Shown in pieces: positions 3 to 4,816 of a DNA stretch of 64,000 nt. The stretch comes from Waddliaceae bacterium (GTDB lineage: Bacteria; Chlamydiota; Chlamydiia; Chlamydiales; SLFE01): the NCBI GenBank assembly GCA_963783885.1, contig CAWAPJ010000019.1, positions 1-64,000 on the forward strand. The letters are read 5' to 3'. How positions within the stretch are numbered: the stretch's first letter is position 1; each line of letters starts with the position of its first letter. Position numbers and translations under genes: made by a program. The notes below the pieces were generated by a model. The model was not told the origin of the DNA, ran no database searches, and saw nothing but the letters and a program-made list of their open reading frames with translations.

Positions 3-356
3 ATTTCAGGCTTGTTCTCTTTTCAAGCTCCTAACGAATTTTCATCATTTACAAACTTCGGTAAACAAAATAAAGTATTAAGGAAAAGATTTAGTCCTGA
101 TGAATTTGCAGATGGGGGGCATAGTGTATTCAGAAAAAATCAAATAACTGGTAAGACAGAAAAATATCAAACATATTGGCCCCAATCGAATCCAAGAAAT
201 CCAAATCCTTGGGAGGTAGGAGTACGGTTTGATGGTCCAAGTCATTATCACGAACATTTTAATAAAGTCACCAGAGAAGCGATAATGACTCCTCATATCC
301 ATGATCCTCATACTCCAGGGGGAATCAGATATCCATATAATTGGGAGATTCCTTAA
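3..356 (+). CDS. C-terminal tip of a polymorphic toxin (Ntox24-like nuclease domain), 5'-partial
   Basis: Frame is open from the window edge. His-rich motif RFDGPSHYH...TPHIHDP. Stop abuts the ATG of an immunity gene. Confidence 0.55.
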   Translation: MSGLFSFQAPNEFSSFTNFGKQNKVLRKRFSPDEFADGGHSVFRKNQITGKTEKYQTYWPQSNPRNPNPWEVGVRFDGPSHYHEHFNKVTREAIMTPHIHDPHTPGGIRYPYNWEIP

Positions 357-662
357 ATGTTAGATGATAAAGATTTAATTTTATGGTTACAAAATTGGTA
401 TTATGCCAATTGCGATGGAGACTGGGAACATGATCAAAACATTCTGATTACAACTATAGACAATCCTGGCTGGTCAATAGCAATTAAATTAGAAGGTACA
501 ATTTTAGATAATCATGGATTTTTTGAAAAATTTATAGATAGAACTGACACGGATTGGATTTATTGTAGTATCAAAGATAACCTTTTTAAAGGTTATTGTG
601 GCCCTTTAAATATGCTGGAATTGATTCAAGTATTTAAAGGATTGGTTGAGAAGGCAAAGTAA
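357..662 (+). CDS. Immunity protein, Imm53 family
   Basis: Motif LQNWYYANCDGDWEH...TIDNPGW; directly follows the toxin tip. Confidence 0.8.
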   Translation: MLDDKDLILWLQNWYYANCDGDWEHDQNILITTIDNPGWSIAIKLEGTILDNHGFFEKFIDRTDTDWIYCSIKDNLFKGYCGPLNMLELIQVFKGLVEKAK

Positions 663-710: not shown

Positions 711-1208
711 GTGTGACACGAACCTCATAAGCTTTAGCTCGTGAGGGAGCTGTATGGAAGATAGGGGAAGACCCCCTGATTCGGCTTTCAGGAGCAGAAT
801 CAAACCACCTTAAGCTGCGAAGGCAAATTGCCGCACATGGTGAGCGTTAAGGAAAAGGAGTGGAAATGACCATTTCAGGTGCATGTTAAGGAGATGAACG
901 AAAGTGAACCACCGTCTGAAAATGTCGTAAGGCCCTTAGAAGTCGTCAAAACTGGAAGCATCACGGCAGCATCCAGGACTAAAGCTCAAGGGAAACCTGA
1001 GTACTGCTTGAGCGGCGGCCGGCATAGAGGTGGCATGAACTTAACATAGGCTTTCATATGGAACGTGTGAACTCGTCGTCGCAATGATAAGAGAGAAGCT
1101 CAAAGTGGAAGACCCATAAGAGCGAGAGTATCGATGTGCGGCACGGGGGCGGAACGACTCGTAGTAGTGATGAAGTTTCTGTAATGGAGATGGAGCGAAG
1201 GGGTCGTA
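711..1208 (+). ncRNA. Group II intron 5' fragment (domains I-III), no RT ORF and no D5/D6
   Basis: Starts GTGTGACACG. Ends with a domain III-like sequence GGGGCGGAACGACTCGTAGTAGTGATGAAG...GTAATGGAGATGGAGCGAAGGGGTCGT typical of bacterial class D-like introns. Confidence 0.75.
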
Positions 1209-1929: not shown

Positions 1930-2019
1930 CCATTACAATCGGCCTTGTTCTCTAATCGCGCCGTTTTTAGTCAAACATTTTCTCTTCTCCATAAAGAATT
2001 TTGAAAAAAGTCTCTTTTA

Positions 2020-2200
2020 TCGCCATAACACACTCCCTTGGTTCTCTCCGGGATCTACTTTGGAGAGCGGTTTTCTCTGCTCTCGTCCCAATATATTTTT
2101 CGAAATAAATCAGGCCAGGCTATGTTGCGTGCGGAGTCTAAAGCTCCAAACAAGGCCGCGCCTTGACCTGATTCAAATCGGTATGTGTTTCTGGCTTAAA
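2020..2200 (-). ncRNA. Putative bridge/seek RNA of the IS110 element (ends approximate)
   Basis: Two loop regions. Guides at 2149-2157 and 2123-2130 match the target; guides at 2090-2099 and 2041-2047 match the circle junction. Confidence 0.75.
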
Positions 2201-2311
2201 AATTAACTTCTCTCCACCATTTATTCTGGCTTCAAGCTCTGCTTTCCTCTTTTTTCGGCCTCTCACCCGGACTTGAAGGCCGAAAAAAGAGGAAAGCAGA
2301 GCGGGGTAAAT

Positions 2312-3370
2312 TTAAGCTGCTACCGGTTCCTTTTTTATACTCTCTTCCTTGCTGTCTCCGTACCGGAAGGGTTCGCGTTTCAAAAGCATCGCATGCATGA
2401 TGACAGCCAGCTTCCTGCCGAGGGCAACTGTCGCCTTTTTGAAGCCCTTTTTTCTTTGAAGTTTCAACGCCCATGCCTTAGGTTTACACCAACTTCTAGT
2501 TCGGCTTAGCATCACAACTGCCGACTCCACTAACAACGACCTGGTTTGTCTAGATCCGCACTTTGACACACGACCTAATCTTTGGGTCTCTCCTGAGGAG
2601 TACTGCCTTGGTGTTAGCCCCAAAAATGCAGCGACGTTCTTCGAGTTTTTGAAGCGGGTGTAATCACCAATCGCCACGAGATAGCTCAAGGACGTTAAAA
2701 CCCCGATACCAGGAATTGTCATCAGCAGTTGGACATCGGCGTTGTCTCGAGCTATCGACGAGATCTGTTTCTCGAGGTTGGTTATTTGTTCGGTTAAACA
2801 TTCATATCCCTTTAAAAGTGCTTCGATAGCTGCTTGTACGGAGCTTATTTGATCTTGGATGCACTCCCGAACCAGCTTGATAAACAACAACTTTCCGGTT
2901 GTAGAAACAGTTAGTCCATAAGCTTTTAAAAAACCGCGAATTGCATTTTTTAGCTTTGTGCGCTCTTGAACCAGGGTGCTCCTTGACTGAAGGAGAACGC
3001 CTGTATCGACAAGCTCTTGGTTTTTGACGAACACCTCTTTGTAAAAGCCTCCTCGCATGGCATTAGCTATTCCCCGCGCATCATTGGTATCTGTCTTGTT
3101 GATGTTCATGGACAGAATCGAGGACATATGTCTTGCATCCACGCATAGGACTGGGAGGCCGAGCTTTCTTAGCTCAGTAACCAACCAGTGGCTTAGGGAG
3201 CCTGTTTCAATCCCAATCTTATCGAGCTGAACCCCGGTTTTCAAAAGCTTCCGTTGGATTGATGAGGGGTCTGTTTTGGTATGTCCTTCATACACTACCT
3301 CTCCTTGGTGGTCTACGACACAAATAAAAGTCTCTTTCAAAGATACGTCTAATCCTACATAATGGTTCAT
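2312..3370 (-). CDS. IS110-family DEDD recombinase/transposase, intact
   Basis: YVGLDVS, GIETG and KTDTNDA RuvC motifs; GLTPRQYSSG with the catalytic serine. Confidence 0.95.
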   Translation of the reverse strand: MNHYVGLDVSLKETFICVVDHQGEVVYEGHTKTDPSSIQRKLLKTGVQLDKIGIETGSLSHWLVTELRKLGLPVLCVDARHMSSILSMNINKTDTNDARGIANAMRGGFYKEVFVKNQELVDTGVLLQSRSTLVQERTKLKNAIRGFLKAYGLTVSTTGKLLFIKLVRECIQDQISSVQAAIEALLKGYECLTEQITNLEKQISSIARDNADVQLLMTIPGIGVLTSLSYLVAIGDYTRFKNSKNVAAFLGLTPRQYSSGETQRLGRVSKCGSRQTRSLLVESAVVMLSRTRSWCKPKAWALKLQRKKGFKKATVALGRKLAVIMHAMLLKREPFRYGDSKEESIKKEPVAA

Positions 3371-3559
3371 GGCTGCTTCTCCTTTTTGGTTTTGGCCTTC
3401 GAGGCCGTGTTATTCCAATGGAGAGTTTATATAAACTACTCCGCGGCGTTTTGCCAGAGAAGCAGCCTTTCGTTTAACTAAGCAGCGCGATTACAATATG
3501 TTGCGTAAGTTCTAATTAGAGGAGATTCTTAGCCCTCTTTTCGTCCAATTCCTTTTTTC

Positions 3560-4496
3560 TTAGGCCATATATCCTACTGGCATCCCGGTTGCAGTCATCA
3601 TATTCAAAATAAATCCTTTTAATTGGAGCTCATTGCTCTGGGCATTTTCTGAACGGCTAAACAATGTATCCCCAAAAATGCCCTTAAGTCGGCTCATCGC
3701 CGTCTCCGCAATTGACCTCATATGATAGCCTATAAGCTTTTTCCAAATCTTCCTAGCCAGCGAATCTCCTCCAAGACCATGTATGACTCTGATGGCATCG
3801 TCTCGTTTTTGCATATGCTCTCGCGACTCGGTATCTAAAACCGCATTTTTCCCTCGGCGGTATACAAGGCATGATTCCTAGCTTGTGTACAAGGCGATAG
3901 ACCTCTTCAGTATCATATGCTCCATCCACAGCGATTTTGCGGATGCTTTTTGGAGCTTCCTCGATCAACTCTGGAAATATTTTGCAGTCAGCCTCTTCAA
4001 GTTCTGTCGCTTTACCGACAATGACTTCATTTGTATCAGGGCATACGCCTACATGAAATTTCTTCCATCGCCTTCTCTTAGATTTCCCGTGCATGCGAGT
4101 GTGCCACTCGCCTTCTCCATAGACTTTGAATCCTGTGGAATCGATTACAAGATGCTGGGGGCTGCTACCTGGAGCCAGGTTTGTTGGAAGCGTGAGATTG
4201 CGACCTCTTCTACAAATTCTTGTATAATCAGGAACGGGAAGATCTAGTCGCATGAGGGTAAACAGGGAGCGTAGAAAACCCTCAGTCTGTCGATAGGGTA
4301 GGGTGAATACGATCTTGATTATCATTGCACAGAGGATAGCTTGGTCTGAGTAGGTATTGGGTCTATCTTTTAAAAATTCCGGACGTTTTGCAAGCCAAGA
4401 CTCAATAGCATCCTCGGAGACCCAAATAGTAAGACTTCCTCTTTTTTTCAGGCTTGTGTTATACTTAGACCAGTTACCAACTCGGTAATTTTTCAT
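3560..4496 (-). pseudogene. IS5-family (IS903 group) transposase, one frameshift near 3845
   Basis: NWSKYNTSLKKRGSLTIW, VIDSTGFKVYGEGEW and DGAYDT in one frame; GYHMRSIAETAM in a second frame. Confidence 0.85.
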
Positions 4497-4585
4497 CTTA
4501 GACTCCTTTGGTTGTAGCGACTAAGGAGTCTATTTTATTTTTTATTGATAATCAATGATTTATTCAAAATTTTTTGAAGAGTCTT

Positions 4586-4628
4586 AGAAAATGTTTGACT
4601 AAAAACGGCGCGATTAGAGAACAAGGCC
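4586..4628 (+). repeat. 43-bp perfect inverted copy of 1941-1983 (IS110 right end plus outer half of the IS5 TIR)
   Basis: AGAAAATGTTTGACTAAAAACGGCGCGATTAGAGAACAAGGCC. Confidence 0.9.
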
Positions 4629-4816
4629 CTGAAATTTCATTCTTTCTCAACTCTTTTTCCCCTCCCTAAATGTCTTAATATGCCGTGTCATTTAAGCTCT
4701 CCAATTTTTCTAACCTTTCTAATCTAAACTGTACATTTTTTAAAAGATTTATTACACATAGTTTTTTATCGTAATTCTTGTTAAAATATATAGACACAAT
4801 GCAAAGGAGCTTATTA

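Follow-up and report, generated by a model that had tools for sequence, protein, structure and literature searches.

An IS1111-type insertion sequence of an environmental chlamydia with a predicted guide RNA matching the terminal repeats of IS903-group elements

The locus and its recombinase gene

The 64,000-nucleotide stretch of contig CAWAPJ010000019.1 of a Waddliaceae bacterium (phylum Chlamydiota; assembly GCA_963783885.1) that was analysed here, referred to below as the window, carries an IS1111-type insertion sequence (IS) of the IS110 family at positions 1949–3501 on the minus strand. This element is 1553 base pairs (bp) long when one core copy (3500–3501) is counted, with boundaries set from a family-wide end pattern, and it interrupts the terminal repeat of another element, here called ISa. 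It is very likely an intact member of the IS1111 group, with a recombinase guided by an RNA of about 147 nucleotides (2175–2029) and with the terminal repeats of IS903-group elements as its target.

The recombinase gene (2312–3370, minus strand) encodes 352 residues with DEDD and Transposase_20 domains, as recognised by Pfam, NCBIfam and a match to IS621. Pfam places PF01548 at residues 5–151 (E 4.1e-20) and PF02371 at residues 214–294 (E 8.6e-25), the NCBIfam model transpos_IS110 ("IS110 family RNA-guided transposase") scores 270 bits against a cut-off of 140, and the C-terminal 145 residues match the solved IS621 transposase (8wt6) with an E of 2.6e-16. A motif NKTDTxDAR also aligns to IS621. 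In an alignment of 23 full-length relatives, D8, E55, D94, D97 and the pair S259-G260 are invariant, as are G251 and P254, which together with S259 and G260 belong to the motif GLTPRQYSSG; section 6 of PMC11187229 defines this motif as GL-P----S(t)G. Judged from these features, the open reading frame (ORF) is intact, with the domains of the family and the catalytic residues present. An IS110/IS1111-type element with an intact recombinase gene had been proposed by an earlier reading made from the nucleotide letters (the sequence-only reading), and the domains, motifs and invariant catalytic residues uphold it.

Ends and core of the element

The left end carries the subterminal inverted repeat TAATCGCGC (element strand; 3485–3493), preceded by core AC and ATATTG, and the right end carries GCGCGATTA (element strand; 1953–1961), followed by GAGA and core AC. 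The repeat is perfect over 9 bp (3493–3485 and 1953–1961), and TAATYGCGC is conserved in relatives. Apart from the 2-bp core, the terminal extensions are thus ATATTG (6 bp) on the left and GAGA (4 bp) on the right, a fit to the IS1111 group that depends on how the core is counted.

Relatives were sought in 400 genomes of the phylum, with recombinase E values up to 1e-30, and were found in 33 of them, the window's own included, one further genome being unscorable; additional relatives came from a metagenome scan (20 loci) and a genome-contig scan (8 loci). The end pattern AC-ATAYYR-TAATYGCGC ... GCGCRATTA-GAGA-AC runs throughout the relatives with recognisable ends. Among 20 genome loci processed, a left end was recognisable in 15 and a right end in 15, and all fit the pattern, the left ends reading flank-AC-AT...-TAATYGCGC and the right ends GCGCRATTA-GAGAAC-flank (15/15 each); no such terminal repeat was found at three of the 20 loci, L013, L029 and L030. 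The metagenome loci follow the pattern in 8/8 left ends and 7/8 right ends, the exception being L050 with GAGGAC. Genome and metagenome loci combined therefore give flank-AC-AT.. in 23/23 recognisable left ends and ..GAGAAC-flank in 22/23 right ends. Because AC is the conserved dinucleotide shared by the two junctions in the end pattern of the relatives, it is assigned as the core, corresponding to GT on the plus strand (1947–1948 and 3500–3501). This replaces the TT (TGTT) core of the sequence-only reading, whose four-base overlap arises because the target happens to share donor letters on either side of the core.

A predicted structured RNA downstream of the recombinase gene

Of the two non-coding flanks of the recombinase gene, the downstream one is the longer (363 nucleotides, 2311–1949, versus 129 nucleotides upstream, 3499–3371). 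This 3' non-coding region had been read as a bridge or seek RNA with two loops, and a folding check yielded a z of −7.8 against 100 dinucleotide shuffles. The two-loop layout is borne out by a structure that covaries among 13 relatives, aligned over about 185 nucleotides; a larger alignment, A2, comprises 22 related RNAs. RNAalifold predicts four helices from the 13 sequences, namely a closing stem and a distal hairpin around loop 1 and a closing and a distal stem around loop 2, with 93.9% of 296 cells able to pair and compensatory changes in 12 of 23 pairs. On four of five measures the observed values are equalled by 0/500 column shuffles and on the fifth by 2/500, and sliding the partners by 1–3 columns lowers pairing to 32–51%.

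The RNA of about 147 nucleotides with its two internal loops (2029–2175, minus strand) was delimited with covariance model R1 (22 sequences) and the consensus structure; it scores 115.7 bits with an E of 2e-26. A scan of the genome (G000, 46 contigs) with this model returned exactly two matches, the window RNA and that of a second copy on contig C1, both inside elements, and hence no orphan guide RNAs. On the minus strand, the closing stem of the target loop pairs 2172–2160 with 2120–2109 and has one bulged A, a GGAG/CUCC hairpin pairs 2147–2144 with 2136–2133, and a GGGA/UCCC stem pairs 2089–2086 with 2053–2050.

Immediately behind the recombinase stop codon, folding also predicts a long hairpin (2236–2304, minus strand) with some 30 pairs. 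It is kept only in the nearest relatives, L048, L049 and L059, which together with the window give four sequences with 26 predicted pairs, six of them with compensatory change. Lying between the gene and the guide RNA, this extended duplex could be a site of RNA processing. Rfam matches at 2195–2338 (Phe leader and microRNA models) fall below gathering scores, lie on this long hairpin and were discarded as spurious.

Guides and their matches to target and donor

Each loop carries two short guides. In the target loop, the 5' guide GGCCUUGU (2150–2157, minus strand) is the reverse complement of core plus right target on the element strand and matches the window site at 8/8 positions, whereas the 3' guide ACGCAAC (2124–2130, minus strand) equals left target plus core at 7/7. 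In the donor loop, the 5' guide AAUAU (2093–2097, minus strand) is complementary to ATATT of the left end, as covariation read by eye suggests, and the 3' guide AGAGAAC (2041–2047, minus strand) equals the last bases of the right end plus core. The donor-loop letters at the core position (AU, 2092–2091) are unmatched, as in most relatives. GAGAAC is internal to 13/13 non-coding regions and is present in 21/22 RNAs of alignment A2, L050 having GAGGAC. The 5' donor guide changes along with the left-end extension, in the combinations ATACT/AGUAU, ATATT/AAUAU (window), ATGCC/GGCAU and ATAAT/AUUAU (by eye).

Across the 22 RNAs the guides occupy fixed alignment columns, with an invariant or nearly invariant U after the 5' guide and AU after the 3' guide. 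The sequence-only reading had listed longer stretches, GGCCUUGUU at 2157–2149, ACGCAACA at 2130–2123 and AAAAUAUAUU at 2099–2090, next to AGAGAAC at 2047–2041 and the stems, and all of these are present where it put them. As guides, however, they have to be trimmed: GGCCUUGU, ACGCAAC, AAUAU and (A)GAGAAC stand, while two letters, the U at position 9 of GGCCUUGUU and the terminal A of ACGCAACA, are assigned to the scaffold because they are (nearly) invariant in the 22 RNAs, and within AAAAUAUAUU, which contains AAUAU (2099–2090, minus strand), only these five letters covary. The layout of four guides in two loops likewise stands, but its order has to be read in element orientation, in which the 5' guide is the partner of the top strand and the 3' guide that of the bottom strand. 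In the portions of the two reports drawn on here, this is the order of IS1111-type seekRNAs and the reverse of that of IS621 (PMC11187229; PMC11208160).

The relatives share the scaffold but have differing guides that match their own flanks. For each relative, the reverse complement of core plus right flank was searched for, together with left flank plus core 15–45 nucleotides further 3'. Both flanks were available over 8 bases or more in 11 relatives; nine of these match their own flanks over 11–17 combined bases, whereas comparisons with the flanks of other elements average 1.0, with a maximum of 14 and scores of at least 12 in 1/110. The window scores 16, made up of GGCCUUGU, ACGCAAC and one further matching base on the 5' side. 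Taken singly, the guides measure only 5 to 8 nucleotides, a point in favour of matches between non-coding region and flanks that arose by chance or from low complexity. Yet 0/20,000 mononucleotide shuffles of the 365-nucleotide non-coding region reach 16 (best 13), the contrast between own and other flanks holds across relatives, and the guides sit at a fixed position in an aligned scaffold, making a chance origin extremely improbable. In L014 (genome G357), the right end shows a tandem duplication of its final 21 bases (CCTTGT + GCGCAATTAGAGAAC), and the guides of this element do not match its present flank.

Host elements, copies and empty sites

The window element is flanked by GGCCTTGT before and TGCGTAAGT after it. 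The former represents the outer 8 bases of the downstream terminal repeat of ISa (1941–1948, plus strand), in which GT at 1947–1948 is one copy of the core. The rest of ISa (3502–4627, minus strand) consists of the inner part of the downstream repeat, starting from TGCGTAAGT, and a frameshifted transposase gene in two pieces (4496–3753 and 3814–3560). Removal of the IS1111-type element rebuilds GGCCTTGTTGCGTAAGT, and the uninterrupted form GGCCTTGTTGCGTAAGTTCTAATTAGA stands at C14:1291, identical for 27 bases, so that the proposed reconstruction of the downstream IS5 end is matched by an existing sequence.

The ISa transposase is recognised by PF13737 and PF01609 and by NCBIfam transpos_IS5_2 (228 bits), and is 48.7% identical, in two frames, to the intact transposase of a second element of this genome, the 1564-bp ISb. 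The latter protein has 314 residues, scores 289 bits with transpos_IS5_2 and shares 46% identity, across 99% of its length, with genes annotated as IS903B. IS903B ends in L075, a Klebsiella plasmid, read GGCTTTGTTGAATAAATC, and ISb ends share GGCTTTGTTG with them. By these comparisons, ISa and ISb are members of the IS5 family, IS903 group. ISb copies are flanked by 9-bp target duplications (AATCTTTTT and GATTAGAAC). ISb also has a passenger gene, located between the transposase gene and the second end of the element; it encodes a PD-(D/E)XK nuclease superfamily protein (PF13366, E 8e-42; L002:4148–4555 for the copy on C1) and recurs in the other ISb copies.

The second genomic copy of the guided element, at C1:100005–101572, is identical to window positions 1945–3508 except for one base at 2115 (one difference in about 1560) and is flanked by GGCTTTGT before and TGCGTAATTAACC after it. 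Outside 1945–3508 the two loci are unrelated, except that both continue into ends of IS903-group elements. A third copy, on metagenome contig L047, has an identical recombinase (100%), is 99.9% identical over the element and lies in an ISb end with an outer flank that differs from those of the other copies; this flank matches C12:82832 onward at 97.6%, but the sequence just before differs and no clean comparison of an empty with an occupied site is obtained. All three full copies with readable flanks thus lie at the same base of IS903-group end-repeats. The sequence-only reading, according to which the target loop spells the IS903-group end-repeat, is therefore sustained by the 8/8 and 7/7 guide matches together with three copies at one base, and the collection of further copies revealed C1 and L047 at that base and not at unrelated sites. 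Contigs of four metagenome runs from four studies break at 1939–1941 and at 3508; new outer flanks were seen in runs X6, X12 and X4, and IS903-type repeat sequence follows 3508 in X3, X4 and X12.

Empty targets are also present in the genome. The ISa-type target GGCCTTGTTGCGT occurs once (C14:1291) and the ISb-type target GGCTTTGTTGCGT nine times, as the end of ISb. An inverted copy of 1941–1982, identical at 42/42 positions, lies at 4586–4627 (minus strand) and comprises the outer 8 bases of the ISa upstream repeat and the last 34 bases of an IS1111-type right end. These two identical, inverted 42-bp copies bracket both genes, and one could thus take them for the true ends of a composite IS5-type transposon, with the recombinase as cargo and the matches as captured DNA. 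At the outer junction (GGCYTTGT + TCTCTAAT; GGCTTTGTTCTCTAAT), 13 of 16 bases still agree with the native ISb end. Against this, the element split by the 1.55-kb unit in C1 and L047 is another one, ISb, of which nine uninterrupted ends exist, relatives with unrelated targets keep the same right end, and the guides sit in the loops of a covarying structure. In addition, the bracketed unit has no 9-bp duplication, with ATTACAATC (1932–1940) and CTGAAATTT (4628–4636) on the two sides of ISa, whereas ISb copies have one. A composite transposon is therefore very improbable, and the two ISa ends may stem from different insertions joined by recombination.

It is also conceivable that RNA guidance brought the element to its sites but that it has recently become a dead relic and no longer moves, for instance because it is not expressed in this host. 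There are only two full copies in the genome compared with 10 empty matching ends and seven right-end stumps, and the host element ISa is itself broken. The circle junction (..GCGCGATTAGAGA-AC-ATATTGTAATCGCGC..) has no match in the genome or in any fetched locus, and the contigs of the four metagenome runs contain no joints, that is, neither the circle junction nor the excised site. Assemblies, however, cannot show rare circles, which makes this absence uninformative, and the ORF is intact with all its catalytic residues. Moreover, near-identical copies at three different loci (one difference between window and C1; 99.9% identity for L047) argue for recent movement. A relic is hence considered unlikely, and an intact, RNA-guided element is the preferred reading.

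Right-end stumps

The right-end junction, GGCNTTGT followed by TCTCTAAT, is found nine times in the genome, belonging to the two full copies and to seven stumps of 8 to about 45 bases (window 4586–4627, C10:82079, C12:21798, C35:11756, C43:23021, C8:98672 and C29:598). All of them follow GGCNTTGT, and all seven truncated stumps are located at the same base of IS903-type ends. The window stump has no element behind it and is the remnant of a second insertion; since it lies at the other end of ISa, both ends of ISa have received an insertion. Relative to a related end in C43, this stump is also short of about 40 bases belonging to the IS5 end and is a plain deletion. In C10, C12 and C43, the left break lies exactly at core AC, and the tail that is kept starts behind an AC found at the corresponding position of the intact right end or close to it. 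These breaks may have been made by the recombinase through mis-excision at a cryptic internal AC, or may be deletions at short repeats; the sequences beside the internal AC sites are unlike the true right end or the target, and deletion by microhomology at AAC/AC is the ordinary alternative. The stumps at C8 and C29 derive from another relative, with repeat TAATTGCGC, of which the genome contains no full copy. The site at C12:21798 (minus strand), spanning about 90 bases, looks like a miniature ISb derivative with two ISb-type ends about 15 bases apart, one of which carries a 16-base right-end stump of the guided element.

A more far-reaching possibility is that the clade has co-evolved with IS903-group elements beyond targeting, by hitch-hiking on the IS5 transposase and with the stumps as excision scars at cryptic AC sites. 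An outer junction that keeps 13 of 16 native bases would mean that the IS5 transposase could move the nested pair. However, the 9-bp duplication GATTAGAAC around the pair on C1 fits insertion in place as well as joint movement, and ISb copies are 98.5–100% alike, hence there is no lineage signal for hitch-hiking. We regard such co-evolution as doubtful; if true, the stumps would be a natural record of off-site bridge recombination.

IS903-end targeting among relatives

Guides for IS903-like ends are present in eight of the 22 aligned RNAs (window, L009, L022, L048, L049, L052, L053 and L059), these guides being GGNNNTGT combined with ..CAAC, or else the near variants GGGTTTGT and GACTTTGT. In the genome of L009, the rebuilt 22-mer has 18 matches at up to three mismatches, versus none for the reversed control, and degraded IS5-like transposase remnants adjoin two of the six loci fetched. 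For L022 (genome G045), the rebuilt target occurs only three times and the adjoining IS5-like remnants are weak (E 6.7e-4 and 0.001); its target is likely an IS end, although the sequence support is weak. The flanks of the metagenome relatives are too short to reveal a transposase. In C1, L047, L048, L049 and L059, the 5' guide disagrees with the occupied site at its fourth letter, and guide position 4 thus seems tolerant of mismatch.

In a recombinase tree of 26 rows, built without L047, which is identical to the window, without the partial L059 and without loci whose RNA could not be read, six of the seven rows labelled for IS903-like ends group in a single clade (96/94 support). This clade also contains L050, whose target is a different one. 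L022 is placed elsewhere, beside L017, and at least two changes of target class are therefore needed. Targeting of IS903 ends is hence common to most of one subclade and reappears outside it. Run X12 holds two contigs of an approximately 94% variant of the element with three adjacent changes at 2129–2131, inside the 3' target guide. These changes would turn the guide into UGUGCAAC, which fits the ISb-type end ..TTGCACAA.. that occurs five times in the genome; as the variant contigs have no linked flank, this is only a lead.

Proposed mechanism and its meaning

In the proposed mechanism, GGCCUUGU and ACGCAAC in one loop would pair with opposite strands of GGCCTT-GT-TGCGT, overlapping at the core GT/AC, while AAUAU and (A)GAGAAC in the other loop would recognise the joined ends of the element (..GAGA-AC-ATATT..). 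The site recognised would correspond to positions 1–13 of the terminal inverted repeat of IS903-group IS5 elements, a location that would lead to insertion inside other insertion sequences and in one orientation. By analogy with ISEc11, ISKpn4, ISPa11 and IS621, the RNA would be made, bind the recombinase and direct strand exchange via a circular intermediate.

Several observations weigh against this interpretation. No bridge-RNA family in Rfam matches the window RNA, whose membership rests on our own alignment, and a scan of the minus strand between hairpin and RNA found no promoter-like site near the RNA. The 5' donor guide is short (5 nucleotides) and leaves the core unpaired, unlike in the description of IS621, and the 9-bp perfect subterminal repeat lies at the short end of the published range, given as 7–17 bp for the IS1111 group in the part of PMC11208160 used here. 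L014 and L026, two of the 11 relatives with sufficient flanks, have no guide match to their present flanks. Finally, 10 uninterrupted targets are left in the genome and only two of 12 matching ends are occupied, and the sites in C1 and L047 are imperfect, with C opposite T at guide position 4.

The ends, the core and all four guides were assigned by comparing 22 related RNAs, which provides a fully annotated element from an environmental chlamydia. It exemplifies one class of mobile element that specialises in colonising and interrupting the ends of another. With one scaffold and many targets, the clade forms a compact natural series that is useful for work on bridge recombinases.

Neighbouring genes

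At the start of the window, 3–356 (plus strand) is an open-ended reading frame for the C-terminal 117 residues of a protein without a Pfam match, directly followed by a gene for an Imm53 immunity protein (357–662, plus strand; PF15580, E 1.5e-31). The arrangement at 3–356 and 357–662 is the usual one for a polymorphic toxin tip followed by an immunity gene. Positions 763–880 (plus strand), within the region 660–1240, which is without a long ORF, match group II intron domains D1–D4 (RF01999, 86.4 bits, E 4.7e-17) and are probably an intron fragment.

Comparison with known systems

The use of the ends of one mobile element as the target of another has precedents. IS4321 and IS5075, which belong to the IS1111 group, were reportedly found by Partridge and Hall in 2003 to insert in the 38-bp terminal repeats of Tn21-family transposons. 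The window element resembles them in being of IS1111 type, in having subterminal repeats and in occupying one fixed base and orientation inside the repeat of another transposable element. It differs in that its host is an IS903-group IS5 element and not a Tn3-family transposon and that it resides in an environmental chlamydia; these likenesses concern ends and sites. Similarly, the inverted repeats of IS1384 are said to be the target of IS1383 in Pseudomonas putida H (Muller, Lauf and Hermann, 2001), so that, as far as the title of that work tells, one insertion sequence there too uses the terminal repeats of another as a specific target. A literature search combining IS1111 with IS903 and IS110 with Chlamydiae found no title or abstract that names IS903-type ends as a target, although the supplementary tables of the two 2024 papers (PMC11187229, PMC11208160), with targets for several hundred ISfinder elements, may already list IS5-family ends.

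Among elements with seekRNAs, ISEc11, ISKpn4/ISPst6 and ISPa11 have been described (Siddiquee et al. 2024, PMC11187229). In the sections of that report considered here, ISEc11, ISKpn4 and ISPa11 share with the window element a long non-coding region downstream of the gene and the GL-P----SG motif, and in seekRNA elements, as here, two short overlapping segments match the two target strands, with the complement of the top strand lying 5'. The same sections give recombinases of 330–350 residues (352 here), terminal extensions of 7/3 or 6/3 (6 left and 4 right plus a 2-base core here) and a usual subterminal repeat of 11–13 bp (9 bp, perfect, here).

The resemblance to IS621, according to the parts of its description consulted (Durrant et al. 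2024, PMC11208160), lies in the target and donor loops, each with two opposite-strand guides that overlap at a dinucleotide core. Unlike in IS621, the RNA is located at the right end instead of the left one, the guides follow the opposite order, AC takes the place of CT as the core, and the 5' donor guide leaves the core unpaired in most clade members (PMC11208160); as for the recombinases, only the C-terminal 145 residues align by sequence. The AC core, the reversed guide order and the core-unpaired donor guide set the clade apart from IS621. The mechanism proposed is a known one, of which the window element is a clean new example that opens no new mechanism.

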